Shown here one piece after another: positions 18,830 through 57,964 of a stretch of DNA of 64,000 nt. How positions within the stretch are numbered: the stretch's first letter is position 1; every line of letters begins with the position of its first letter. Position numbers and translations under genes: made by a program. The DNA comes from Octopus vulgaris (lineage: Eukaryota). The stretch spans positions 46,934,001 through 46,998,000 of the forward strand of contig OX597820.1 of assembly GCA_951406725.2 (NCBI GenBank), read 5' to 3'. The notes beneath the pieces were generated by a model. It ran no database searches and was not told where the DNA came from. It saw only the letters and a list, made by a program, of their open reading frames with translations.

Positions 18830-19647
18830 GGATTTTTTTCCCTTTCAACAGCAGATTGAGAAATTAATTTTTTGTAACTAAACACTTTCAAACTTCGGAC
18901 ACTGGTAGAATGTGTCATATAAAACATCTTTTACTCTTAGTGTTGTTGAGAAAATTTTTTATTTTCAAAGGTATTTCATGTTAAATTTTTTTGTATTTCG
19001 GTAATTTCAACCAATCAGTGACATGTATACAGCTGAATAAAATTACTGCCGTTGTTTATCAACAACAACTATCGGCAGTGTATATTTTGTTTGTTACTGT
19101 TATTTATGACATCGTTCGTGCGTTTGTACTAGTTTTAGGGTTACGGTTGGGGTTGGGGGTTTTGGGTTAGAGTTATGGAAAAAAGTGAAAAAATGAAGAA
19201 ATTAGAGGGGAAAGGGGACAAAAAAGTCTTTCTGAAAATAATAGCTGAAAAACAGGAAAAAAAGACTAAAAGCAGTAGAAATGCACGAATGAGTATGGTG
19301 GTGCCATGATATAAACATGTTTCAGATACACTCGTTTATTCATACAAACTTAACTGAGATGAAATATGTCATAAATAACAGTGACAAACGAAATATACAC
19401 CACCGGAAGTTGTTATTGACAAACAACAACAGTAATTTTATTCAGCTGAATAGACGTCATTGATTGGTTGAAATTACTGAAATACAACAACTTTAACATG
19501 ACATAACTTCGAAAATTAGAAAATTTTCTCAACAACACTAAGAGTAAAGGATGTTTTACATGACACATTCTACCAGTGTCGGAAGTTTGATAGTGTTTAG
19601 TTACAAAAAATTAATTTCTCGATTTGCCATTGAAAGGGAAAAGATCT
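18830..19647. mobile_element. Non-autonomous DNA transposon with ~290-bp TIRs and 8-bp TSD GAATTAAT. Related one-ended copy ~48310-48580
   Basis: Long imperfect inverted repeats; identical GAATTAAT at 18822-18829 and 19648-19655. Confidence 0.85.
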
Positions 19648-24095: not shown

Positions 24096-24834
24096 AATGC
24101 AAGTAAGGCGGGCAAGCAATTGTGCATAATAGATAGAGCTGGATTAAGGTTTGAGCTTGCCCAATAAATGGTTAAAAGCCATTTTGCAGTAATTGTTCCA
24201 AACCATTTGTGACTTGACATGCCCCTGACCTATGTAAGACTACATGGGTATAAGCTTAGATATTTTGAGATCCTTTTTTTCTATTGTGCACCACAGCAAG
24301 GCACCCCTCTTTGCTCAGTTTGTTCAACCAGCCAAAAAATGTTCTATGACCTTTTTCTTCACATTTGAATGGATTAGTGACCAGAAATGAATCCAACCAA
24401 CGATAAAAACAATCACCTCAACATATAAACCATTTCATTCATGCTAGCAAAGAAAAATTAATGTAAATCTGCAAAAACAAAAATTTTGTTTTATCATTTT
24501 CACTCTTTCTTTTTCTCATACCCCATCTCTCTCCACTCTCTCTTTCTCTCTTCCTGTCTTTCTCCCTCTCTTTCAGTTCCCCTCTTTTTCTCTCTTCCCC
24601 TCTTTCTTTTTCTTTCTCTCTCCTTCCCTCTTTCCGTCTAAGATATATTCTTTGCTGTTTTCAAATTCCAAATAGAGTTACTCATAAGAAATAGTAAAAT
24701 TGATTTGCAAAACTGACTTTGAAAAAATTATATTTTATTTTGTTTTTCTATTTCTGTTGTTATCTTCTGGTTTTATTTTCTGCTGTTAATTTCTGTCAGT
24801 AATTCCTGACATTAATTCCTGCCATTCATTTCAG

Positions 24835-25060
24835 TCAAATCCGTGAATGCTTAAAGTTAGACCCTGATCATAAAGACTGCTTCCAGCATTATAAGAAGGT
24901 GAAGAAATTGGTAAAACTTATTAATGCAGCACAAGAACAAGCAAACTCACAATCTTATGAAGAATGTATCCAAAAAGCTAATCAAATTCTTGAAATGGAG
25001 AATAAAAATCAACAATTTATTCTAAAGGGCAAGTCCTTCCTTTGTCATTGTAATTCCAAA
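24835..25060 (+). CDS. DNAJC3: DNAJC3 exon 7 (SQIRECLKLDPDHKDCFQHYKKVKKL...CHCNSK)
   Basis: CAG/GTAAGT; hallmark RECLKLDPDHK motif; phase 2/0. Confidence 0.95.
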
Positions 25061-25560
25061 GTAAGTGACTTTTTTCTGTTTTTTGCATTCTTGTTTGACA
25101 TTTTTGTTTTTTTTTCATCAATTCCTTGCATTTCTATTTCACCTCTACTTACCTTCTTTCTCTTTTAGTCTCATTTGGTGTGTGTGTGTGTGTGTGTGTG
25201 TATAATATACATATATAAAGGGTAAAGATTTCCTTCTGTCTTGACTGACCATGGGATTACACCTAGATAGTTCCCCTCAGAGGTACAAGTCCAGGCAAGG
25301 TTGTTTATGGAAGATCAGGAGTTGCCCATGCATACCAGCCTGCACTCTCCATGCCACTGATGTTATCCAAGGGAAAGGCAAAGGCTGATACAGCTTGGCA
25401 CCAGTGACTTCGCAACTCATTTCTATAGCTGAGTGAACTGGAGCAACATGGAATAAAGTGTCTTGCTCAAGAACACAACATACAGCTCAGTCTGGGAATC
25501 AAACTCACCACCTCATGATTGCGAGCCCAACACTCTAACCACTGAGCCATGCACCTTCAG

Positions 25561-25654: not shown

Positions 25655-25695
<41 letters not shown>

Positions 25696-25837
25696 ATATG
25701 TATATATATATATGTATATGTGTATATATATGTATATATGTGTATATATATGTGTATGTATATGTATATATATATGTATATATATGTATATGTATATATG
25801 TGTATATATATATGTATATATATGTATATATATATGT

Positions 25838-25871
<34 letters not shown>

Positions 25872-25920
25872 ATGTATATATAAAGATGTATATGTATATA
25901 TGTAGTTTTATATGTATATG
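25561..25920. repeat. Compound (TA)/(TG) microsatellite, representative of dozens (e.g. 27657-27886, 52983-53158, 53687-53820, 57885-58030, 59595-59960)
   Basis: Directly visible; source of many spurious YI/CV/HT ORFs. Confidence 0.98.
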
Positions 25921-25924
25921 TCAT

Positions 25925-26790
25925 CATCATCAATCATTTTAAATCCGTGGTTTGTCCCCGTTAATAGGGGTTGCTGGATCTACCTCAATGCCCCAGCAAC
26001 CGCCCTCACACTATCTCACCATCTTTCCCGGTTTTGGCCATCCTCCCTTCGCAAGCCAACCCTTCCAATCTCCTCCTCCACCCGTCCTCTTCACATTTGG
26101 TCTACTTCGCTTTCACTGTCCATTTTCCTCAAACTCTAGCAGCCTCTTCAGAACATGCTCCTCATCCCTCCTCAACACATGCCCATACCACAACACTCTA
26201 TTTGCCCTTTGGCAGCTGTTCCACTGATTTCTCTAACCCCAGCATCCCCATCATCTCCTCAGTCTTCCGCTTATCAAACAGCCTCACACTACACATTCCT
26301 CTGACCGTTACCCTCTCTGTCTTTCTCAAAATTGACATCTCTCTCTCTCCCTCAACTAGCATATCTCACCCCCATACTGCATTGCAGCTCTTACGTACAC
26401 CTTTCTTTTCGTCTTCAATGAGAACCTTTTCCCATATAACAACGCTCCGCATTCCCTGAACTCCACCCAGCCAAGTTTCGCTCTTGCTGTCACAGCTGCT
26501 TCACATCCACCACTTACATCCACCCTGTTTACCAAATAACAAAACCCTCTCACCAGCTCCACACCTTATCACATAGTGTTTCCACTAACTTCTGTCTAAG
26601 ATATATTCTTTGCTGTTTTCAAATTCCAAATAGAGTTACTCATAAGAAATAGTAGCCTTCCACCTCCTCTCTCACATCTTCCACAAACAAACTCTCTTGC
26701 CAGTCGCTTGGGGGTCACCTTCTTCATTTCTATACATCTGCCATGAATCCATTTCTCACATCTCATACACAAAACCGCATTTGTCATTAC
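25925..26790 (-). mobile_element. Decayed RTE-type LINE, second PHD-bearing family
   Basis: CMRCEKWIHGRC..FVCGRC and GGCEAAVTARAKLGWVEFREC peptides. Confidence 0.85.
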
Positions 26791-27099
26791 CCTCCCACAT
26801 ACACCTTCCTTAGCCTAACCTACACCCCCACCCTCAGCTTAACCCACACCCCACCCTTGCGTTCCCCACTCTTGCCTCCCTCACCTTCCAACACCACTAC
26901 ACCATACACCACCATGCCACACAACACATCACATCACACCACCATGCACACACTAGCACTGACCACTCCCCAGCCCCACATCCATACACCCACACATTCA
27001 CACACCCACATGTCAAGGTCACCAGCCGTCTTCCACATGCACATACATACTCTCTTATACACATGCACGTGAACCTTCGTTTTGGGATCACCACTTCTT

Positions 27100-27250
27100 T
27101 ATTATCTCCCCTTCTTCCTAGCTCTCCTGTGTGACCCCTCTGTCTGGCATTCGCCATGATAGATCGCTAGCCACTACACATTCTTTATTTTCTCTCCTTG
27201 TTTCTTTCTGTGTTCCTTTCTGTGGAAGAGCGTAGACTCGAAATGTTATA
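27100..27250 (+). mobile_element. PLE-type terminal module with minimal HHR-like motif (27216-27249). Same family at 57720-57870(+) and 61035-61205(-)
   Basis: ccactacacattctttattttctc...cttt-CTGTGGA-A-GAG..CTC-GAAA shared among the copies. Confidence 0.6.
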
Positions 27251-27271
27251 CATGTATATGTATATACATAC

Positions 27272-27310
<39 letters not shown>

Positions 27311-27311
<1 letters not shown>

Positions 27312-27604
27312 AATTGCGGTGTGGAAGGTGTTTGTGAGCCATTTAAGAGGCACACGGGGGCCGTTCGGTTCACTTCAGCATTTGGGTTTGATTTGTCAAA
27401 ATATTTTCGTCGGTATGGGACCACGACCTGTTCACTGACAAAAATCCGTGAAAAAGAGATGCGGCACGGATTTTTGTCAGTGAACGGGTCGCCGTCTTGA
27501 AGCAGCGAAAGTGTTTTGACAAATTGGACTTGGATGCTGAAGTGAATCGAGCGGCTTTTGTGTGTTTCTTGAATGGCTTGCGGGCGCCTTCCACGCTGCA
27601 ATTG
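27311..27604 (+). repeat. 140-bp-arm palindrome (14-nt loop) with 31 G.T appositions
   Basis: Ungapped position-by-position pairing of 27311-27450 with 27465-27604: 104 Watson-Crick, 31 G.T, 5 other. Confidence 0.95.
27392..27442 (-). ncRNA. Minimal type I hammerhead-like motif with G3-C8 core
   Basis: TTTGTCA-GTGAACA-G-GTCG..CGAC-GAAA-ATAT-TT-TGACAAA: 7-bp stem I, 4-bp stem II, palindromic loop III. Confidence 0.65.
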
Positions 27605-27674
27605 TTTTCGTTTCAGCACACGATCTCAGATCAAATCACTTGCTATGCGAGTACATCTCTCTCTCTCTCTCTCA

Positions 27675-27740
<66 letters not shown>

Positions 27741-27886
27741 ACATATATATGTATGTGTTATACATACATATATATGTATATGTCATACATATATATGTAT
27801 ATGTTATACATATATATATATATGTATATATACATACATATATATATTCACGTGTATAGATATATATATGTATATATATATATATA

Positions 27887-29876
27887 TGATGCTATATTCC
27901 TGGTAAGGCAGCTGCAGGAGAAATACCTAGGCAAAGATAAGCCCCTGTACCTGGCTTTTGTTGACATGGAGAAAGCCTTCGACAGGGTCCCCCGATCCCT
28001 TATCTGGTGGGCAATGAGGAAACTAGGGATAGATGAATGGTTAGTGAGAGCTGTGCGGGCCATGTATAGGGACGCTGCTAGTAGGGTGAGGGTTGGAAAC
28101 GAGTACAGTGAAGAATTCCGGGTAGAGGTAGGGGTCCACCAAGGCTCAGTACTCAGCCCCCTCCTATTTATCATAGTCCTCCAGGCAATAACGGAGGAAT
28201 TCAAGACAGGATGCCCTTGGGAGCTCCTCTATGCTGATGACCTTGCTCTAATTGCTGAGTCGCTATCAGAACTGGAGGAGAAGTTTCAGGTGTGGAAACA
28301 AGGATTAGAATCGAAGGGCCTCAGAGTCAATCTAGCTAAAACCAAAGTCGTAATCAGTAGGAAGGTAGACAAATCACAAACGCCTTCAGGTAGATGGCCC
28401 TGCTCGATCTGTAGAAAAGGTGTAGGTAGAAACTCTATAAGATGCACCAAGTGTAAGCTATGGATACATAAGAGGTGCAGCAATGTCAAAGGAAGGCTAA
28501 CTAGGAAGATGATTTTTGTATGTGGCAGATGCTCAGGAACAATAAACACTGAAAATGCTCTGAGACCAACTTCCGTCACTTTCCAAGGAGAAAAACTAGA
28601 AATAGTTGATAGTTTCCGTTACCTAGGTGACCAAGTCAGCAGAGGGGGCGGGTGTGCTGAAAGTGTAACTGCTAGAGTAAGAATAGCTTGGGCAAAGTTC
28701 AGAGAGCTCTTACCTCTGCTGGTGACAAAAGGCCTCTCGCACAGAGTGAAAGGCAGACTGTATGATGCGTGTGTATGAACAGCCATGCTACATGGCAGTG
28801 AAACATGGGCCGTGACTGCTGAGGATATGCGTAAGCTCGCAAGAAATGAAGCCAGTATGCTCCGATGGATGTGTAATGTCAGTGTTCATAATCGACAGAG
28901 TGTAAGTACCTTGAGAGAAAAGCTGGACCTAAGAAGCATCAGTTGTGGTGTGCAAGAGAGACGATTGCGCTGGTATGGTCATGTGGTGAGAATGGATGAA
29001 GATAGTTGTGTGAAAAAGTGCCACACCCTAGCGGTTGAGGGAACCTGTGGAAGAGGCAGACCCAGGAAAACCTGGGACGAGGTGGTGAAGCACGACCTTC
29101 GAACTTTAGGTCTCACTGAGGAAATGACTGGAGACCGAGTCCTCTGGAAGTGTGCTGTGCGCGAGAAGACCCGGCAGGACAAGTGAGTCCATAACCCGTG
29201 GCCTTCTACTTGGGATGGAGCCAGCCTACGTATGCATACCTTCCCTTCTTGGGACACAAAACTCTACTTGTGAAGACCTGTTGAGGCAAGTGAGGATCAG
29301 AATCGAAATCGATCAATGGAAATTGCAGATGTGTTACCAGTGCCGGTGGCATGTCGATACTCTACTTGTGAAGACCCGTTGAGGCAAGTGAGGATCAGAA
29401 ATGGAAATCGATCAATGGAAATTGCAGATGTGTTACCAGTGCCAGTGGCATGTCGAAACTCTACTTGTGAAGACCCGTTGAGGCAAGTGAGGATCAGAAT
29501 GGAAATTGCAGATGTGTTACCAGTGCCGGTGGCATGTAAGAGAACCTTCCGTTTCGAGACTGTTGCCAGCACCGCCCCGTTTCATGTCCGTTGCCAGCCT
29601 CGCCTGGCCCTTGTGCCGGTGGCACATAAAAAGCACCATCCGTTCGTGGCCGTTTGCCAGCTCTGTCTGGCACCTGTGCGGGTGGCACGTAAAAAGCACC
29701 TACTACACTCACGGAGTGGTTGGCGTTAGGAAGGGCATCCAGCCGTAGAAACACTGCCAGATTTGACTGGGCCTGATGAAGCCTTCTGGCTTCACAGACC
29801 CCAGTAGAACCGTCCAACCCATGCTAGCATGGAAAACGGACGCTAAACGACGATGATGATGATGATGATGATGATA
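27887..29876 (+). mobile_element. Young 5'-truncated RTE-type LINE (RT with YADD, PHD finger, one CGA>TGA stop at 28776, tandem-repeat 3' UTR, (GAT)n tail)
   Basis: [22 protein letters not shown] and LLYADDL motifs; RGRPRKTW C-terminus. Confidence 0.97.
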
Positions 29877-29932
29877 TATATATGTATATATATATATATA
29901 TATAGGAAGGTTTGGAGATGATGTACAGGTAT

Positions 29933-30320
29933 TATATATTAGAAGAAATGAGGTACTCAGAAGATCAGATGGTTTATATTTACAGATATTTATTTGTATA
30001 TTACATTTTTTATATATATATCATATCACTTAGATCATTAGTGCTTTCTCCCATTCTAGTGGGGTTTTCAAATCAAACTAAGTTCCTGTGTGAGGAGATT
30101 TGACCATTTTATGTGTGAGGAGATTTGACCATTTTATAAAATGGTCAAATCTCCTCACACAGGAACTTAGTTTGATTTGAAAACCCCACTAGAATGGGAG
30201 AAAGCGCTAATGATCTAAGTGATATGATATATATATAAAAAATGTAATATACAAATAAATATCTGTAAATATAAACCATCCGATCTTCTGAGTACCTGAT
30301 TTCTTCTAATATATATATAT
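29933..30320. repeat. Near-perfect ~180-bp-arm fold-back palindrome in (TA)n; second copy ~36068-36440
   Basis: Arms differ at about 3 positions; centre gaccattttataaaatggtc. Confidence 0.95.
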
Positions 30321-30736
30321 ATATATACTCACACACACATATATGTATACATACACAAATCAGATAAGAAGGGATTAAAAATCCAAGCTGATTCCACAAT
30401 CTGCACTTTCGCAAATGTTGTCTAACACAGTGTATATAAGTAGATTGTTTACCTTAAAGAAAATTGCTCATACAAAGTGAAAGGTCTAATAAATTGTAGG
30501 ATGTGATTCGAGGGAGGTTTGGCTGATATTTCTAGCAGGTTGAGTCACCATACAGAGGCTGATTATGGGAATCTAAGCTCTCAAGAGTCAAGTGCATAAA
30601 TTCTCATTACAGGAATTAAAGATGAAAGGTTACTGCTCAAAAATATTAGTCTCTTATTCCATGTCATGTAAATGACATGCTTTGCTTCAATATCTGTTGT
30701 TTTTAAATATTATCATATTAACCTTTTTACATTTAA

Positions 30737-30957
30737 CTCTGTAGCATTCAGATTACTCTATCAAATGTAATGCTTATTTATGCACAATGTTTGGAATTAA
30801 TAATATAATATCTGATAGCTTCAAAATTTCGATGAGATGATTGCATGCTTTTTAAAATGACATTGTAGAGTAGGTGTGAGAGGCCAGATCTGTCTGGTTT
30901 GTGTATAAAACAGGTAGAATATTTGGGCTGGGTATGGTCAGTTTAAATGCTAAAAGG
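30737..30957. mobile_element. piggyBac-like MITE. Related copies ~32615-32830, 45735-45916
   Basis: TTAA flanks; ctctgtagcatt / aatgctaaaagg termini. Confidence 0.6.
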
Positions 30958-31019
30958 TTAAACTAGCCATATCTGATTTATAGTAGCTTACCTTTTGACT
31001 TATTTTAGAACATGGTTGA

Positions 31020-31516
31020 GTCCATAAAATAGAATTTGACTACACCTCCATTTAGAGCACAGTTTAAGCTATCTTTCGTGGAAGAAGATTTATGTTCCTA
31101 TAACCTGTGTTAATTCTGTAACCCTTTAAAATGGAAGATAAGAAAGTTCATTTTCGGCACTTGATGCTTTGGGAACCAGACAAAAATTGCTGCAGCTCGG
31201 CTGGGATATGTTACCCCACCCTCCATATTCTCCAGATATTGCTCCTTCAGATTTGCACTTATTCAGGTCTCTGCAGAATAGTCTTAATGGTAAAAATTTC
31301 AATTCGTTGGATGACGTAAAAAGATACCTTGATGAATTCTTCGCCATGAAACCACCTCAATTCTGGGAAGAGGGTAATTTCAAGGTAATGGATAGATGGA
31401 GACGCATTGTGCAACAAAAAGGTTCATGTTTGGTTGATTAAAAATGTAATGGCAAGTATTTATTGACCTTTTTCTTTCCTTTAAAAATCGGCACAAACTT
31501 TCCGAAGAACCCAATA
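31020..31516 (+). mobile_element. Internally deleted mariner; duplicate at ~37415-37911
   Basis: MEDKKVHFRHLMLWE fused to LPHPPYSPDIAPSDLHLFRSLQNSL; 3' TIR ending ...aacccaaTA. Confidence 0.9.
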
Positions 31517-31760
31517 CTTGTTTTATGTTCAGATCTGGCCTTTCCTATCTAGCCTACAATGTCATTTTAAAAGTAAACAGTCACATCATTGAGAGGTAGA
31601 GGTACAAGATAATACATGATGAATTCAAAATGATGTGAATACATAAGCATTACATTTCACTGAATAATATTAATGCTAAAGGGGTTGTTAAAGGTTAATC
31701 ATTGATTAGTTGTAATGTGAAACACTTTCGTATAAATATTTTCTTTTTATTTTAACAAAG

Positions 31761-31881
31761 GCTGGCTTTGAAAAAGAGGCAATCAAGAAGTGTAGTGAAG
31801 TTCTCACAATAGACTCTAACAATGTGGATGCTTATTGCGACCGAGCTGAAGCTTATATTAAAGCCACCCAGTACAACGACG
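31761..31881 (+). CDS. DNAJC3: DNAJC3 exon 8, copy 1 (AGFEKEAIKKCSEVL...DRAEAYIKATQYND)
   Basis: AG/GTAAGT, phase 0/1, DRAEAY motif. Confidence 0.9.
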
Positions 31882-32161
31882 GTAAGTGGTTTGATCATCA
31901 ATGAAGGCTGCAAACAGCTGAGGTGTATAAGAGGAAATTGTTTGTTGTATGACTGAGTGCCCATTGTAATGTCTAGAACAGGCATGGCCATTTTTTTTTG
32001 TATGGAGGGGAAGGGGGTCGATCTAATTGACTGGCCCCCTCCCCAAAAATTTTGGCCTTGTGCCTAGAGTAAGAAAAGATATTGTCTACACTCATTTTCG
32101 TTACATTTTGTCCTTCATTGTAATGCCATATCTCTACTTTCTTTTTCTCATTCCTCTATAG

Positions 32162-32294
32162 CGGTTAACGATTACCAACAAGCACAGAATATCGACTCAG
32201 AATCACATAGAGTCCAAGAAGGTCTGGAGAAAGCTAAAAAAATTCTTAAGCAATCAAAAAGAAGAGATTATTATAAAATCCTTGGTGTACGGAG
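32162..32294 (+). CDS. DNAJC3: DNAJC3 exon 9, copy 1 (AVNDYQQA...KQSKRRDYYKILGVR)
   Basis: AG/GT, J-domain start DYYKILGV, phase 1/2. Confidence 0.9.
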
Positions 32295-32390
32295 GTTGGT
32301 TTCTTTCTCTTTCTCTCTCTCTTCTACTTTATCTCCTGTTCACTCTCTCTTTTCCTCTTCTCTCTCTCTCTCTCATCTTCTCTATTATTA

Positions 32391-32485
32391 TATATAAACT
32401 CTTTAGCTACAGTACAGACAATACAAATTGCATATAGAATATATGCAATTTGTATTGTCTGTACTGTAGCTAAAAAGTTTATATA
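32391..32485. repeat. 46-bp-arm palindrome with GAA loop, ~100 nt after exon 9; duplicate ~38793-38888
   Basis: One mismatch between the arms. Confidence 0.9.
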
Positions 32486-33534
32486 CCCTTCTGAAAGCTT
32501 TTGAATAAGTCAAAATGTAGATGTTAGATTTTCGTATATGCTGTTGTGCATCAACAGATCATAATGAAGATGAAGAAATGTCTATGGCTTTTGTATAGGT
32601 TGTCATGTATTTAACACTTTAGCATTCAGATTTGCTTGTCAAATCAAATGCTTACTTATTCTCGTTATTTTGAATTAATCATGCATTATCTTGTAGCTTC
32701 AAGAATTTGATGGTATGTTTGTTATATTTTTAGAATGACATTGTAGGGTAGGTGTGAGAGATTGAACCTGATCAGTTTTAACATAAAACAATATTTGGGC
32801 AGGATATGGCTGGATTAAGTGCTAAAAGGTTGAAACGCATCTATAGGAATTTATATTGCCTAGAATGTGTACATACTTTATAGATATGCATAAGCATTGG
32901 CTCTATAGCTGTGTGTCACATGTAGTCAGTGAAGACTTGTATTTAATAACTATATGCATTTGTGCATATTGTAATATACTGTAGGACTGTATATGACTTT
33001 AATCTATGGAGATTTATATAGCAGATGCTGCAGGATCAGTGTTTAGTCGTTAGAGCATTGGGCTCACAATCATGAGGTAGTGAGTTTGATTCCCGGAACG
33101 GGCAGTGTGTTGTGCTCTTGAGCAAGACACTTTATTTCACATTGCTCCAGTCCACTCAGCTGTAGAAATGAGTTGCAATGTCACTGGTACCAAGCTGTAT
33201 CAGTCTTTGCCTTTCCCTTGGATGACATTGATGGTGTGGAAAGGAGGAGGCTGGTATACAGAGGCGACTGGTGGTCTTCCATAAACAACCTTGCCCAAAC
33301 TTGTACCTTGGAGGGGAACTTTCTAGGTGCAATCCCATGGTCATTCATGACCGAAGGGGGCCTTTACTCAATATTTGGAGATTTACATAACTTGTACTGT
33401 AGTTATAAGTGTTTGTATAACTTGTAGTCTGTTATATGTTGATTTTCATAGGCTTTAATGTTACATAGTTTATGCTGCCTTAAATTTATGTAAGGATTTG
33501 TACAATCTCTATGTTATGATAATATTTTTGCCAG

Positions 33535-33683
33535 GAATGCAGACAAACGTACGATACTAAGGGCATACAGAAAGCTGGCTGTGAAATGGCACCCTGATAA
33601 ATATGATAATGAAGAGGACAAAAAGAATGCACAGCAACACTTCATTGATATTGCTGCTGCCAAAGAGGTTTTGACCAATCCTG
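33535..33683 (+). CDS. DNAJC3: DNAJC3 exon 10, copy 1 (J-domain HPD: RAYRKLAVKWHPDK...FIDIAAAKEVLTNP)
   Basis: CAG/GTGAGT, HPD motif, phase 2/1. Confidence 0.9.
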
Positions 33684-33882
33684 GTGAGTGTTTGGTGACG
33701 GCACTAAGAATGTTTAAATGCTCATGTAGATTCACACTCACATCCACTCCCCAGCAATCTCTCTCCTCACAAGACATTTTCTCTCTTGCTCTTTCTCTCT
33801 CTCTTTCTCACTTTCTTTCTTTACCACATTCACCATATAAAGTGAGATCACTACCCAAAGTTACGGGGAAGTAAACACACCA

Positions 33883-33982
33883 NNNNNNNNNNNNNNNNNN
33901 NNNNNNNNNNNNNNNNNNNNNNNNNNNNNNNNNNNNNNNNNNNNNNNNNNNNNNNNNNNNNNNNNNNNNNNNNNNNNNNNNN
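33883..33982. other. Assembly gap (100 N)
   Basis: Run of exactly 100 N between the two duplicated blocks. Confidence 0.99.
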
Positions 33983-34026
33983 TATATATTCACGTGTATA
34001 GATATATATATGTATATATATATATA

Positions 34027-36006
34027 TGATGCTATATTCCTGGTAAGGCAGCTGCAGGAGAAATACCTAGGCAAAGATAAGCCCCTGTACCTGGCTTTTG
34101 TTGACATGGAGAAAGCCTTCGACAGGGTCCCCCGATCCCTTATCTGGTGGGCAATGAGGAAACTAGGGATAGATGAATGGTTAGTGAGAGCTGTGCGGGC
34201 CATGTATAGGGACGCTGCTAGTAGGGTGAGGGTTGGAAACGAGTACAGTGAAGAATTCCGGGTAGAGGTAGGGGTCCACCAAGGCTCAGTACTCAGCCCC
34301 CTCCTATTTATCATAGTCCTCCAGGCAATAACGGAGGAATTCAAGACAGGATGCCCTTGGGAGCTCCTCTATGCTGATGACCTTGCTCTAATTGCTGAGT
34401 CGCTATCAGAACTGGAGGAGAAGTTTCAGGTGTGGAAACAAGGATTAGAATCGAAGGGCCTCAGAGTCAATCTAGCTAAAACCAAAGTCGTAATCAGTAG
34501 GAAGGTAGACAAATCACAAACGCCTTCAGGTAGATGGCCCTGCTCGATCTGTAGAAAAGGTGTAGGTAGAAACTCTATAAGATGCACCAAGTGTAAGCTA
34601 TGGATACATAAGAGGTGCAGCAATGTCAAAGGAAGGCTAACTAGGAAGATGATTTTTGTATGTGGCAGATGCTCAGGAACAATAAACACTGAAAATGCTC
34701 TGAGACCAACTTCCGTCACTTTCCAAGGAGAAAAACTAGAAATAGTTGATAGTTTCCGTTACCTAGGTGACCAAGTCAGCAGAGGGGGCGGGTGTGCTGA
34801 AAGTGTAACTGCTAGAGTAAGAATAGCTTGGGCAAAGTTCAGAGAGCTCTTACCTCTGCTGGTGACAAAAGGCCTCTCGCACAGAGTGAAAGGCAGACTG
34901 TATGATGCGTGTGTATGAACAGCCATGCTACATGGCAGTGAAACATGGGCCGTGACTGCTGAGGATATGCGTAAGCTCGCAAGAAATGAAGCCAGTATGC
35001 TCCGATGGATGTGTAATGTCAGTGTTCATAATCGACAGAGTGTAAGTACCTTGAGAGAAAAGCTGGACCTAAGAAGCATCAGTTGTGGTGTGCAAGAGAG
35101 ACGATTGCGCTGGTATGGTCATGTGGTGAGAATGGATGAAGATAGTTGTGTGAAAAAGTGCCACACCCTAGCGGTTGAGGGAACCTGTGGAAGAGGCAGA
35201 CCCAGGAAAACCTGGGACGAGGTGGTGAAGCACGACCTTCGAACTTTAGGTCTCACTGAGGAAATGACTGGAGACCGAGTCCTCTGGAAGTGTGCTGTGC
35301 GCGAGAAGACCCGGCAGGACAAGTGAGTCCATAACCCGTGGCCTTCTACTTGGGATGGAGCCAGCCTACGTATGCATACCTTCCCTTCTTGGGACACAAA
35401 ACTCTACTTGTGAAGACCTGTTGAGGCAAGTGAGGATCAGAATCGAAATCGATCAATGGAAATTGCAGATGTGTTACCAGTGCCGGTGGCATGTCGATAC
35501 TCTACTTGTGAAGACCCGTTGAGGCAAGTGAGGATCAGAAATGGAAATCGATCAATGGAAATTGCAGATGTGTTACCAGTGCCAGTGGCATGTCGAAACT
35601 CTACTTGTGAAGACCCGTTGAGGCAAGTGAGGATCAGAATGGAAATTGCAGATGTGTTACCAGTGCCGGTGGCATGTAAGAGAACCTTCCGTTTCGAGAC
35701 TGTTGCCAGCACCGCCCCGTTTCATGTCCGTTGCCAGCCTCGCCTGGCCCTTGTGCCGGTGGCACATAAAAAGCACCATCCGTTCGTGGCCGTTTGCCAG
35801 CTCTGTCTGGCACCTGTGCGGGTGGCACGTAAAAAGCACCTACTACACTCACGGAGTGGTTGGCGTTAGGAAGGGCATCCAGCCGTAGAAACACTGCCAG
35901 ATTTGACTGGGCCTGATGAAGCCTTCTGGCTTCACAGACCCCAGTAGAACCGTCCAACCCATGCTAGCATGGAAAACGGACGCTAACGACGATGATGAGA
36001 TGATGA

Positions 36007-36010
<4 letters not shown>
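34027..36010 (+). mobile_element. Duplicate of the RTE LINE at 27887
   Basis: Identical ORF translations at an offset of 6140. Confidence 0.95.
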
Positions 36011-36041
<31 letters not shown>

Positions 36042-37140
36042 AAGGTTTGGAGATGGTGTACAGGTATTATATATTAGAAGAAATGAGGTACTCAGAAGAT
36101 CAGATGGTTTATATTTACAGATATTTATTTGTATATTACATTTTTTATATATATATCATATCACTTAGATCATTAGTGCTTTCTCCCATTCTAGTGGGGT
36201 TTTCAAATCAAACTAAGTTCCTGTGTGAGGAGATTTGACCATTTTATAAAATGGTCGAGATCTCCTCACATTTTATAAAATGGTCAAATCTCCTCACACA
36301 GGAACTTAGTTTGATTTGAAAACCCCACTAGAATGGGAGAAAGCGCTAATGATCTAAGTGATATGATATATATATAAAAAATGTAATATACAAATAAATA
36401 TCTGTAAATATCCGAAACCTCATTTCTTCTAATATATATATATATATATATCGAAACGTCATACCCTCCTTCTTCCATTTTCCTGAGCACCTATTAATAA
36501 TAATACTGTAATTGTTCCACGTGTTGTTTTTCTGTTTTCCCGTTTGGATTAACCCTATATATATATATATATATATATACTCACACACACATATATGTAC
36601 ACATACACAAATCAGATAAGAAGGGATTAAAAATCCAAGCTGATTCCACAATCTGCACTTTCGCAAATGTTGGCTAACACAGTGTATATAAGTAGATTGT
36701 TTACCTTAAAGAAAATTGCTCATACAAAGTGAAAGGTCTAATAAATTGTAGGATGTGATTCGAGGGAGGTTTGGCTGATATTTCTAGCAGGTTGAGTCAC
36801 CATACAGAGGCTGATTATGGGAATCTAAGCTCTCAAGAGTCAAGTGCATAAATTCTCATTACAGGGATTAAAGATGAAAGGTTACTGCTCAAAAATATTA
36901 GTCTCTTATTCCATGTCATGTAAATGACATGCTTTGCTTCAATATCTGTTGTTTAAATATTGTCATTGTAACCTTTTCACATTTAACTCTGTAGCATTCA
37001 GATTACTCTGTCAAATGTAATGCTTATTTATGCACATTGTTTGGAATTAATAATATAATATCTGATAGCTTCAAAATTTCGATGAGATGATTGCATGCTT
37101 TTTAAAATGACATTGTAGAGTAGGTGTGAGAGGTCAGATC

Positions 37141-37290
37141 GCCAACACTACACTTGATACACACACAAGCATGTCTGACTCATACATTGTTTTTCCAGAC
37201 ATTTCTACATTACTGCATGTACTATATGCACTTTCTGACAAGTTGTGGTGCAACGAACTGTATTTTTCATTATTATTATTATTATCATTA
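37141..37290 (+). mobile_element. CR1-like 3'-end insertion with (ATT)n tail, present only in copy 2
   Basis: Absent at the homologous site 30890-30893; resembles the reverse complement of 50665-50755. Confidence 0.75.
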
Positions 37291-38155
37291 TCTGGTTTGT
37301 GTATAAACTAGAATATTTGGACTGGATATGGTCAGTTTAAATGCTAAAAGGTTAAACTAGCCATATCTGATTTATAGTAGCTTACCTTTTGACTTATTTT
37401 AGAACATGGTTGAGTCCATAAAATAGAATTTGACTACACCTCCATTTAGAGCTCAGTTTAAGCTATCTTTTCGTGGAAGAAGATTTATGTTCCTATAACC
37501 TGTATTAATTCTGTAACCCTTTAAAATGGAAGATAAGAAAGTTCATTTTCGGCACTTGATGCTTTGGGAACCAGACAAAAATTGCTGCAGCTCGGCTGGG
37601 ATATGTTACCCCACCCTCCATATTCTCCAGATATTGCTCCTTCAGATTTGCACTTATTCAGGTCTCTGCAGAATAGTCTTAATGGTAAAAATTTCAATTC
37701 GTTGGATGACGTAAAAAGATACCTTGATGAATTCTTCGCCATGAAACCACCTCAATTCTGGGAAGAGGGTAATTTCAAGGTAATGGATAGATGGAGACGC
37801 ATTGTGCAACAAAAAGGTTCATGTTTGGTTGATTAAAAATGTAATGGCAAGTATTTATTGACCTTTTTCTTTCCTTTAAAAATCGGCACAAACTTTCCGA
37901 AGAACCCAATACTTGTTTTATGTTCAGATCTGGCCTCTCCTATCTAGCCTACAATGTCATTTTAAAAGTAAACAGTCACATCATTGAGAGGTAGAGGTAC
38001 AAGATAATACATGATGAATTCAAAATGATGTGAATACATAAGCATTACATTTCACTGAATAATATTAATGCTAAAGGGGTTGTTAAAGGTTAATCATTGA
38101 TTAGTTGTAATGTGAAACACTTTCGTATAAATATTTTATTTTTATTTTAACAAAG

Positions 38156-38276
38156 GCTGGCTTTGAAAAAGAGGCAATCAAGAAGTGTAGTGAAGTTCTC
38201 ACAATAGACTCTAACAATGTGGATGCTTATTGCGACCGAGCTGAAGCTTATATTAAAGCCACCCAGTACAACGACG
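38156..38276 (+). CDS. DNAJC3: DNAJC3 exon 8, copy 2
   Basis: Same sequence as 31761-31881, inside the duplicated block. Confidence 0.85.
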
Positions 38277-38561
38277 GTAAGTGGTTTGATCATCAATGAA
38301 GGCTGCAAACAGCTGAGGTGTATAAGAGGAAATTGTTTGTTGTATGACTGAGTGCCCATTGTAATGTCTAGAACAGGCATGGCCATTTTTTTTTTTTGCA
38401 TATGGAGGGGAAGGGGGTCGATCTAATTGACTGGCCCCCTCCCCAAAAATTTTGGCCTTGTGCCTAGAGTAAGAAAAGATATTGTCTACACTCATTTTCG
38501 TTACATTTTGTCCTTCATTGTAATGCCATATCTCTACTTTCTTTTTCTCATTCCTCTATAG

Positions 38562-38694
38562 CGGTTAACGATTACCAACAAGCACAGAATATCGACTCAG
38601 AATCACATAGAGTCCAAGAAGGTCTGGAGAAAGCTAAAAAAATTCTTAAGCAATCAAAAAGAAGAGATTATTATAAAATCCTTGGTGTACGGAG
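38562..38694 (+). CDS. DNAJC3: DNAJC3 exon 9, copy 2
   Basis: Same sequence as 32162-32294. Confidence 0.85.
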
Positions 38695-39945
38695 GTTGGT
38701 TTCTTTCTCTTTCTCTCTCTCTTCTACTTTATCTCCTGTTCACTCTCTCTTTTCCTCTTCTCTCTCTCTCTCTCATCTTCTCTCTATTATTATATATAAA
38801 CTTCTTTAGCTACAGTACAGACAATACAAATTGCATATAGAATATATGCAATTTGTATTGTCTGTACTGTAGCTAAAAAGTTTATATACCCTTCTGAAAG
38901 CTTTTGAATAAGTCAAAATGTAGATGTTAGATTTTGTATATGCTGTTGTGCATCAACAGATCATAATGAAGATGAAGAAATGTCTATGGCTTTTGTGTAG
39001 GCTGTGATGTATTTAACTCTTTAGCATTCAGATTTGTTTGTCAAATCAAATGCTTACTTATTCTCATTATTTTGAATTAATCACGCATTATCTTGTAGCT
39101 ACAAGAATTTGATGGTATGTTTGTTATATATTTAGAATGGCATTGTAGGATAGGTGTGAGAGATTGAATCTGATCAGTTTTAACATAAAACAGAATATTC
39201 GGGCAGGATATGGCTAGATTAAATGCTAAAAGGTTGAAATGCATCTATAGGAATTTATATTGCCTAGAATGTGTACATACTTTATAGATATGCATAAGCA
39301 TTGGCTCTATAGCTGTGTGTTACATGTAGTCAGTGAAGACTTGTATTTAATAACTATATGCATTTGTGCATATTGTAATACACTGTAGGACTGTATATGA
39401 CTTTAATCTATGGAGATTTATATAGCAGATGCTGCAGGATCAGTATTTAGTCGTTAGAGTATTGAGCTCACAATCATGAGGTAGTGAGTTTGATTCCCAG
39501 AACGGGCAGTGTGTTGTGCTCTTGAGCAAGACACTTTGTTTCACATTGCTCCAGTCCACTCAGCTGTAGAAATGAGTTGCAATGTCACTGGTACCAAGCT
39601 GTATCAGTCTTTGCCTTTCCCTTGGATGACATTGATGGCTTGGAGAGGGAGAGGCTGGTATGCAGAGGTGACTGGTGGTCTTCCATAAACAACCTTGCCC
39701 AAACTTGTACCTTGGAGGGGAACTTTCTAGGTGTAATCCCATGGTCATTCATGACCAAAGGGGGTCTTTACTCTTTACTCAATATTTGGAGGTTTACATA
39801 ACTTGTACTGTAGTTATAAGTGTTTGTATAACTTGTAGTCTGTTATATGTTGATTTTCATAGGCTTTAATGTTACATAGTTTATGCTGCCTTAAATTTAT
39901 GTAAGGATTTGTACAATCTCTATGTTATGATAATATTTTTGCCAG

Positions 39946-40094
39946 GAATGCAGACAAACGTACGATACTAAGGGCATACAGAAAGCTGGCTGTGAAATGG
40001 CACCCTGATAAATATGATAATGAAGAGGACAAAAAGAATGCACAGCAACACTTCATTGATATTGCTGCTGCCAAAGAGGTTTTGACCAATCCTG
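39946..40094 (+). CDS. DNAJC3: DNAJC3 exon 10, copy 2
   Basis: Same sequence as 33535-33683. Confidence 0.85.
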
Positions 40095-40339
40095 GTGAGT
40101 GTTTGGTGACGGCACTAAGAATGTTTAAATGCTCATGTAGATTCACACTCACATCCACTCCCCAGCAATCTCTCGCCTCACAAGACATTTTCTCTCTTGC
40201 TCTCTCTCTCTCTCTTTCTCACTTTCTTTCTTTACCACATTCACCATATAAAGTGAGATCACTACCCAAAGTTACGGGGAAGTAAACACACCAGCATCGG
40301 TTGTCAAGCGATGTTGGGGGGACAAACACAGACACATAA

Positions 40340-43035: not shown

Positions 43036-43167
43036 ATCAAAAGAAAAACAGGATGCAAAGGATTTAGCGGTACATATGTTTCTGGCTTTATTGGACAGTT
43101 TATATCAATGCATAAAGCCAGAAACATATGTACCGCTAAATCCTTTGCATCCTGTTTTTCTTTTGAT
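43036..43167. repeat. Perfect 56-bp-arm palindrome with 20-nt loop
   Basis: 43036-43091 is the exact reverse complement of 43112-43167. Confidence 0.95.
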
Positions 43168-49544: not shown

Positions 49545-49813
49545 AGTCTATTTGCCAACGCAAGTGCAGTCATACGTAGGACGATGTTACTACTTTTTAG
49601 TCCCAGGAAAACATCTTTTCTAGCTGGTTACCGACACATGATCTGTGTCCGTATACTGTGAGCAAGGGAGTCTACGGAGTAGTAGGCTCCTTTGCTTACA
49701 GTATACGGACACAGGTCATGTGTCGGCAGCCAGCTGGAAAAGATGTTTTGCTTGGACTAAAAAGTAATAACATCGTCCTACGTAGGACTGCACTTTGCGT
49801 TGGCAAATAGACT
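49545..49813. repeat. ~130-bp-arm palindrome with a short (~6-nt) loop
   Basis: 11 substitutions and 1 indel between the arms. Confidence 0.95.
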
Positions 49814-56844: not shown

Positions 56845-56959
56845 GCTTACGGCCATATCACTTTGAATGCACCGGTTCTCTTCCGATGTAAGTTAAGTAA
56901 CGTCAACCGTAGTTAGTACTTAGATGGGTGACCGCTTCTCAAAGCTAAGTGCAGCAAGC
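56845..56959 (+). pseudogene. 5S rRNA-derived sequence fused to a SINE body (to ~57110)
   Basis: gcttacggccatatcac..accggttctc.tccgat..aagttaag..gttagtacttagatgggtgaccgc aligns to animal 5S rRNA (boxes A and C), with substitutions and a deletion. Confidence 0.85.
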
Positions 56960-57964
56960 TGTAGCAATTCCCCACCGATGTCGACTTTGCCTTTCATCCT
57001 GTCGGGTCGATGAAATAAGTACCAGTTGAGCACTGGAGTCGATGTAATCGACTAACCCCTCCATCGAAATTTCTGGCCTGATTTGCAACCAAATTTCTGG
57101 CCAAAATTTGCGACCAATTTATATGTATATACACAATGATCCATCACATGGTCGATCAAGTAAACGTTTTGACTCGTTAGATTAGCGAATAAGTGGTCGA
57201 GTATCCCGCATTCACTTGCAGTCTGAACGTAAGTCACAAACCAAATCAGTGTGACAGAAGATATGTCACGTTTAGACCTTTGAATTACGGTTACAATCCA
57301 CCCGATGGGATTCGAAATAGCTTCCGTCCCTACACTTTCACTCACAAAGGTTTTGGGTCCTCCCCTGCAGCTGTAGTAAATACATATAACCAAGGTGCCA
57401 CACATGACAGTGAACCCGGGATATTATGATTGAGGATCGAACTTCTTATCTGATCAGCCATGTCTGCGTCAGCATAATTAGTTAAGGATAAACACAATGA
57501 AAAATACGTAGTGCGTTAAGAAACTTGCTTCCCAAACACAAGGTTCCAGGTTCAGTCACACTGCGTGGCACCTTCGGCAAGTGTCTTCTACTATAGCCTT
57601 GGGCCGATCAAAGTCTTGTGAGTGGATTTGCTAGATGGAAACTGAAAGAAGTCCGTCGTATTATCATGTTGAACCGTTAATCCCTACACATTTTTTCTTT
57701 CTTCGTTTTTTTTTTTTCGTTCACCCTCCGTTTTTTCCTCTCAGTCCTTTCTGTCGAAGAGCGTAGACTCGAAACGTCAGACTTTTCCTTTCTTCCCGAG
57801 CGTTAAACTAATACATCTGCTTGTTGTTCCTTCACCTGTCTTCGTTTTTTGGTTTCTGTAAATTTGAACTAAATATTTATAGTTCACACACACATACACA
57901 CACCCACACACATACACACACACACATACACACGCACGTACACACACACACACACACACACGAA

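Follow-up and report, generated by a model that had tools for sequence, protein, structure and literature searches.

Adenosine-to-inosine edits in RNA are treated as not directly inherited (PMC7703385), and octopus is described as a top hyper-editor (PMC5625713). The locus considered here raises the question of whether such edits could be copied back into chromosomal DNA. It lies in the window, i.e., the whole 64,000-nucleotide stretch of Octopus vulgaris DNA that was analysed (C7:46934001-46998000; the assembly comprises 2.80 Gb in 227 contigs), in which a hairpin starts at C7:46961311. The hairpin and its surroundings include the following features, the A>G counts being given relative to a sister copy at C18:66558526.

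24803..25063, plus strand: exon-bearing frame of DNAJC3; the intron that follows holds the hairpin, whose edited strand is sense to DNAJC3
27311..27450, plus strand: left arm of the fold-back; G at 15 of 44 A positions
27451..27464, plus strand: 14-nt loop, the same as in the C18 sister except for one A>G (of 8 A)
27465..27604, plus strand: right arm, corresponding to the sense monomer; G at 16 of 42 A positions; hammerhead-like motif at about 27474-27522 with a non-canonical core
27605..27655, plus strand: one-sided unpaired family tail; 0 differences from the C18 sister

The two arms are 74% complementary. A recount reproduced what the sequence-only reading had described, namely gapless arms of 140 nt each with 36 mismatches: 31 of the G.T type (14 G.T and 17 T.G), 2 A.C and 3 others (G.G, A.A and C.C). 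Tested against 1:1, the ratio of 31:2 gives p=1.3e-7. The 5' neighbours of the 31 Gs, read as As, are A in 14 cases, T in 10, C in 6 and, as claimed, G in only 1. The plus strand folds as RNA into one helix (-220 kcal/mol), and the minus strand into a broken helix (-148). The claim that the other long inverted repeats of the window are free of the skew agrees with the six that were examined (G.T:A.C of 1:1, 1:0, 4:3, 5:7, 6:2 and 8:12); the repeat at 43036 lies outside this set and does not appear among the 25 inverted repeats listed for the window. An inverted-repeat scan over 374 kb gave p>=0.06 for 37 of 38 repeats with the window hairpin as the sole outlier, its sensitivity being incomplete, because two other edited hairpins in the same sequence went undetected. 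The G.T skew of the window hairpin is real in the assembly sequence.

Long near-perfect inverted repeats of other families are present in the window (29933-30315, 36111-36411, 49562-49795 and 18836-19642), and the genome is rich in potential ADAR substrates.

The hairpin belongs to a repeat family, the search for which returned 1891 first-look candidates, of which 40 were scored. The common plan is a ~200-nt monomer with its inverted copy, a variable loop, a one-sided tail and TA-rich flanks, and loops vary between independent insertions. Among the private changes of 21 ordinary copies, 24 occur in mirror image in the two arms, which indicates that the hairpin is normally made from one template at insertion; the 96 unmirrored changes yield 36 G.T and 25 A.C. 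Editing of the monomer before fold-back was rejected, since it predicts symmetric changes, whereas 36 of those in the window copy are asymmetric and 1 is symmetric.

An inverted truncated copy, a one-sided tail and a microsatellite target are features of Penelope-like elements (PLEs). The element had been taken for a PLE; its architecture does match PLE insertions, and the search for a PLE open reading frame linked to the family found none, the seven single-arm matches having no common upstream sequence except within one locus. By its architecture, the element could be filed as PLE-like, not as a PLE member. A fragment resembling a Penelope-type reverse transcriptase by eye, with no Pfam match (L028:8104-8586), is situated ~2.8 kb from, and not contiguous with, a family hairpin on C14.

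The earlier reading of a hammerhead stood in part. In the core numbering that we assume for the window motif, A9 reads G in the right arm as described; the core is non-canonical, and Rfam returned no hammerhead match at the gathering threshold or at E<=5-10. The hammerhead-like fold (three helices and a G3-C8 core) is mostly kept among 15 distinct copies, with 95% of cells paired (15 of 500 shuffles were as high). Its covariation is no higher than that of shuffles (85 of 500), and G3-C8 is replaced by A-U in 1 of 15 distinct rows. The copies L047 and L048 represent an older subfamily; they are identical over the aligned stretch, with A-U for the G3-C8 core pair and a ~220-nt insertion.

The direction of the changes was determined with the C18 sister, which has the loop and ~2.3 kb of flank in common with the window hairpin, is near-identical to it and is the only full-length match of the window flank among the 40 scored. 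The arms of this sister differ by 1 mismatch. The window hairpin differs from it by 32 A>G and 8 other changes. Changed A account for 31 of 86 in the arms and for 1 of 291 in the flank (p=2.5e-21); the flank, of 1286 nt, has 16 differences in all. The proposed A>G direction holds both against the family majority and against this sister; consensus and sister comparisons gave A>G and not C>T, and the window arms are not two divergent subfamilies. The features around the hairpin that bear on its origin are as follows.

25655..27888, plus strand: segment common to the window and C18, presumed retro-copied RNA; ~2.3 kb, both ends approximate, in TA microsatellite
25655..25880, plus strand: self-complementary (TA)n-rich tract with an A>G excess against C18 (8 A>G and 2 G>A over an alignment of 220 nt; TGTG occurs 5 times vs 0)
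25920..26815, minus strand: 3' fragment of a non-LTR retrotransposon in the shared segment, presumably RTE-like; an unedited single-stranded control
26594..26654, plus strand: templated insertion of ~57 nt plus microhomology, with its source at window 24636-24696; the C18 sister is without it
26818..27245, plus strand: abundant ~430-nt repeat in the shared segment (4802 first-look candidates), unedited
27888..29874, plus strand: 5'-truncated, very young non-LTR retrotransposon (LINE) with RVT_1 and PHD, which we take to be RTE-like; it is sense to the edited strand and is a candidate mobiliser

Short G spacings in the tract 25655..25880 number 6 of 24 vs 1 of 99 (p=2e-4), which is weaker evidence, given the microsatellite alignment. 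At the insertion 26594-26654, intron sequence (24636-24696) has been copied 1.9 kb downstream into the duplicated segment, with microhomologies of 3 nt and 1 nt; this looks like a repair-derived templated insertion or a template jump at integration.

Two further edited copies were found. Thirty-two family loci, picked by similarity or by edit patterns and therefore not a random sample, were tabulated, and three of them are polar: A>G:T>C as tabulated is 33:1 in the window, 0:18 at C14 and 15:0 at C9, the next locus having 4:0. On the edited strand, against the family majority, the ratios are 33:1, 18:0 and 15:0, respectively. Four sequence patterns gave 2, 10, 2 and 10 matches, with no edited copy beyond the three; a single-site pattern recovered the same three and 7 unedited copies. 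The sites shared by the window and C9 are partly so by construction, because C9 was found with a pattern made from the window's sites. Each of the three edited copies is matched by an unedited sister on a different chromosome (C7/C18, C14/C22 and C9/C27), and all three are placed in larger inter-chromosomal duplications of ~2.3 (window), 5.3 and 0.55 kb. The edited load amounts to 18-36% of the arm A.

Relative to its sister on C22 (near 36847600), the C14 hairpin (C14:23151038) has G at 19 of 93 A, besides 4 other changes; measured against the family majority, the A>G count is 18. In the flank (1497 nt), 2 of 440 A are changed, and in the LINE body (2495 nt) 3 of 735; the sequence in common extends as far as the LINE tail and no further. 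The two loops differ, so the exact loop pattern missed the sister, and C22 was found by a flank search. An upstream TA tract contains 15 G in 713 nt at C14 vs 0 in 1119 at C22. Within the C14 segment, one short inverted repeat and the short runs of pure (TA)n are unedited, which counts against the proposed editing of self-pairing sequence.

The copy at C9:75302600 and its sister at C27:31566729 have 15 differences in 263 nt, all of them A>G. The 280 nt that follow show no substitution and close with the 3' end of a LINE embedded in TAA. C27 is the only one of 13 other loci with the C9 loop that also shares the flank. Two of the C9 Gs fall where C27 alone among the other copies has A, so the G is the later state. 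The C27 sister is without the outer 7-8 nt of the arm present in C9, which counts against a simple copy: as it stands, C27 is not the immediate donor, and a third source or a later deletion is needed. An upstream relative of the C9 LINE contains RVT_1 and zf-RVT (Pfam), and the C9-side LINE is presumably R4/Dong-like. At C9, L057:2650-4263 holds an intact 537-aa ORF of a 5'-truncated non-LTR element within (TAA)n arrays, and more such fragments, presumably under the same label, are grouped at C27 (L103). A single change, A>G, affects the putative hammerhead A9 in one arm of three otherwise ordinary copies (L008, L015 in the right arm, and L007); L007 counts 4 A>G against 0 T>C. These could be lightly edited copies or chance.

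As in ADAR hyper-editing, the A>G changes are clustered on one strand and far exceed other changes; both strands of the duplex are edited and single-stranded flanks are spared, with the exception of 1 of 8 loop A in the window copy. With the family majority as the reference, the edited fractions by 5' neighbour pooled over the three copies are 20/36 for T, 33/120 for A, 7/62 for C and 3/43 for G. The proposed disfavour of a 5' G is thus borne out (3/43 vs 60/218 for other neighbours, p=0.003). Depletion of the upstream G at editing sites is reported across metazoans (PMC5625713; PMC8586724). A 3' G shows no significant preference (11/34 vs 52/227 elsewhere, p=0.28), and the downstream G preference is described as weak in octopus (PMC5625713). 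We infer that the enzyme was ADAR. The edited locus of each pair appears to be the derived copy, the donor would have been transcribed, and the edits would be of germline origin.

How the edited RNA could have reached DNA is suggested by the LINEs. In C14/C22 and C9/C27, i.e., in two of the three pairs, the copy ends at the 3' tail of a LINE and the cargo is in sense, as in non-LTR transduction; at C14 and C9 the edited strand is the sense strand of the terminal LINE. Since the hairpins are found within larger duplications, two of which end at a LINE 3' end, the hairpin seems to have travelled as a passenger. Thus, the central proposal of the sequence-only reading, that a hyper-edited fold-back RNA was copied to DNA, is retained, and the retro-insertion of a PLE transcript gives way to probable carriage within a LINE-terminated transcript. 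In the window, the LINE 27888-29874 is 97-100% identical to 38 other loci scored, many at 99-100%, which indicates a recently active family. Four copies examined are joined to (TA)n at different truncation points, and no hairpin was found in the 600 nt upstream of these four. The LINE is absent downstream of the C18 sister; because of this, and because its family enters TA tracts alone, it is only a candidate mobiliser, and the window copy requires either a template switch or a donor allele missing from the assembly. Several observations count against the passenger reading here: the 8 non-A>G changes of the 294-nt hairpin are denser than the differences of the flank (16/1286) and form two clusters, the LINE fragment inside the shared segment is oppositely oriented (minus strand), and the segment ends in low-complexity TA/TAA microsatellite, so that a target-site duplication is not callable.

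The proposed route would begin with a short non-coding retroelement of PLE-like architecture, inserted as an inverted pair to give a hairpin of ~140 bp. This locus would be transcribed inside a longer RNA terminating in the 3' end of a non-LTR retrotransposon. In both arms, ADAR would deaminate 18-36% of the A; long self-pairing (UA)n tracts would be edited to some extent and single-stranded parts spared. The LINE reverse transcriptase could then prime at the RNA 3' end and copy upstream through the edited hairpin, by 5' transduction or with a template switch in the TA tract. Inosine would be read as G and the cDNA integrated into a TA or TAA microsatellite elsewhere, and the edits of one RNA molecule would become a permanent genomic copy. 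It is very probable that ADAR and reverse transcription acted together, by a new insertion or in place; the likely course is that hyper-editing of a read-through transcript was followed by its reverse transcription and by insertion as a passenger of a LINE, as opposed to the hairpin transposing on its own.

The edited Gs are known from the assembly sequence alone. Among 24 public runs, none contained half the words of window 26700-27640, and no RNA run was listed as containing them. Contigs of four runs (X1, X4, X6 and X15) aligned to 27309-27655 do not reach the edit-dense bins 27357-27368 and 27501-27524, and none spans the interval; they come from other samples, possibly other species, and were filtered, so they neither confirm nor refute the Gs. 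A ~6-kb sequence (27841-33882 and 33983-40293, ~98% identity) is present on both sides of a 100-N gap and includes the last DNAJC3 exons and the young LINE. It is probably two haplotypes overlapped at a contig join and possibly a true tandem duplication. A degenerate 5S rRNA-like sequence at window 56845-56960 (45.3 bits) is a likely pseudogene or SINE head. At C9, C14 and C18, a Pfam scan of 15 (with L057) of 294 long ORFs gave no host-gene family, and a crude exon scan and skew tables were uninformative on host-gene direction. Four ORFs of ~400-420 aa in 30 kb at C18 (L026:8597-9829, L072:8511-9770, L073:3968-5227 and L074:3654-4844) matched no convincing Pfam family and are probably repeat-encoded protein.

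ADAR and reverse transcription would also be required, without a new insertion, if a resident hairpin were repaired or gene-converted in place from cDNA or RNA of the edited transcript to which it itself gave rise (DNAJC3 pre-mRNA in the present case). In the window, the DNAJC3 sense strand is indeed the one edited, and long palindromes are generally break-prone. The edited loci could moreover be the older ones, since the C9 arm end is fuller than that of C27 and C18 has no LINE; these donor gaps keep an overwrite alive. However, it does not predict that 3 of 3 edited copies fall in inter-chromosomal duplicate pairs, and the window edits reach the 5' end of the shared segment, while a 180-bp hairpin at 29933 in the same DNAJC3 intron, outside the duplicated segment, has only 3 mismatches. 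At C14 and C9 no host gene was placed by the exon scan or by Pfam on the listed ORFs. An overwrite in place is considered quite unlikely. An assembly artefact, with a consensus contaminated by edited RNA-seq or cDNA reads or distorted by base-calling error specific to the hairpin, is decidedly unlikely. A contig break is near (the sequence after the N gap, 33883-33982, restarts ~240 nt downstream of the hairpin), and systematic mismatch clusters of the G-to-A type are reported to have entered references before (PMC2873906). RNA reads would nevertheless be expected to align equally to the two sisters, whereas in every pair one sister is free of the changes, and only 3 of 32 tabulated copies are affected, all 3 in duplicate pairs. 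Strand-symmetric sequencing error was rejected, as it should give A>G in one arm and T>C in the other, unlike the one-strand changes seen in both arms.

The changes could also have been made in DNA, during a template-switch duplication, by an error-prone polymerase (eta or iota, with G opposite T and a W-A preference) or by ADAR on the DNA strand of an RNA:DNA hybrid. The templated insertion does reveal repair-type synthesis in the window copy, the 5' T/A preference would also fit the polymerase-eta motif as we understand it, and ADARs are reported to edit the DNA of hybrids in vitro (PMC12925331). The changes, however, stop where single-strand self-pairing stops, and two of the duplications terminate, on the edited strand, at the 3' tail of a LINE. 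Both the purity (15 of 15 at C9) and the load (18-36% of A) appear to exceed what polymerase eta would produce, and such mutagenesis is very improbable. The probability of ordinary decay, or of two divergent subfamilies placed head to head, is practically negligible: some of these Gs do occur in an older subfamily (8 of 10 pattern matches), but those 8 older copies have no polarity, and the arms of the sister with the same loop and flank have 1 mismatch. Comparisons with the sisters C18, C22 and C27 rule out C>T decay and a two-subfamily origin.

With the reading of a LINE-carried, ADAR-edited transcript, the three chromosomal copies and their unedited sisters provide a direct test of whether A-to-I edits can be inherited, and the edited copies would record ADAR action on single RNA molecules in cells contributing to the assembled genome. 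The method is simple and scalable: G.T vs A.C skew is measured in genomic inverted repeats and sisters are then searched for. The events look rare (three found) and non-coding, and the effect on the genome is likely small unless the route reaches genes. It is rather doubtful, though conceivable, that the LINE machinery of this lineage routinely returns ADAR-edited RNA to germline DNA, the hairpins being only the visible extreme. If this is true, (TA)n arrays would gain TG units in the same way, recoding edits could become fixed in retrogenes or through cDNA conversion, and edited retrocopies would amount to a readable fossil record of germline editing. The route would also contribute to the excess of edited-A-to-G substitutions reported in cephalopods (PMC7703385).

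In a search conducted mostly at the level of abstracts and covering few subscription journals, no published case of retrocopies edited by ADAR and fixed in the genome of an animal was found, a result that does not establish absence. Several known systems are related in part. In LINE 5' transduction and chimeric retrocopies, upstream sequence is co-mobilised and the copy ends at the LINE 3' tail and is 5' truncated; the present case is unlike these in that the cargo carries RNA edits and that target-site duplications are not demonstrable at the present ends. Edited RNA is written back to DNA in the retroprocessing of plant organelles, which differs in being C-to-U, organellar and achieved by in-place gene conversion.

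The architecture of Penelope-like elements and non-LTR retrozymes, as described in PMC8557442 and bioRxiv 10.64898/2026.07.22.740005, is similar in the inverted truncated copy, the one-sided tail, the (TA)n targets and the hammerhead-like motif. It differs from the family described here in the tail (~60 nt here vs 30-40) and the canonical core, and the search here found no linked RT/GIY-YIG ORF. Palindromic repeats such as those of Xenopus Harbinger are hyper-edited in RNA (PMC5625713); they likewise provide a self-folding ADAR substrate of ~200-300 nt with depletion of the upstream G, and are reported in RNA only, whereas here the pattern is in DNA.

APOBEC-hypermutated retroelements fixed in genomes have been reported (PMC4866542, PMC2873906). 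The edited LTR retroelements of vertebrates (PMC4866542) resemble the present copies in a deamination burst at retrotransposition that affects one copy and is seen against its sisters, and differ in that G>A arises from cDNA deamination with no hairpin link. G>A was selected over A>G in that screen, which described invertebrates as free of DNA editing; the hairpins would be an ADAR counterpart in animals that it found empty. A near parallel is found in avian retroviruses, where ADAR-type A>G clusters are reported in inverted repeats (Felder 1994; Hajjar and Linial 1995; via PMC12925331, PMC8586724), with nearly 50% of A converted to G in one inverted repeat (PMC12925331). There, too, an RNA with an inverted repeat replicates via reverse transcription; those cases are viral, whereas here a host repeat seems to ride non-LTR elements, at three chromosomal loci with unedited sisters.
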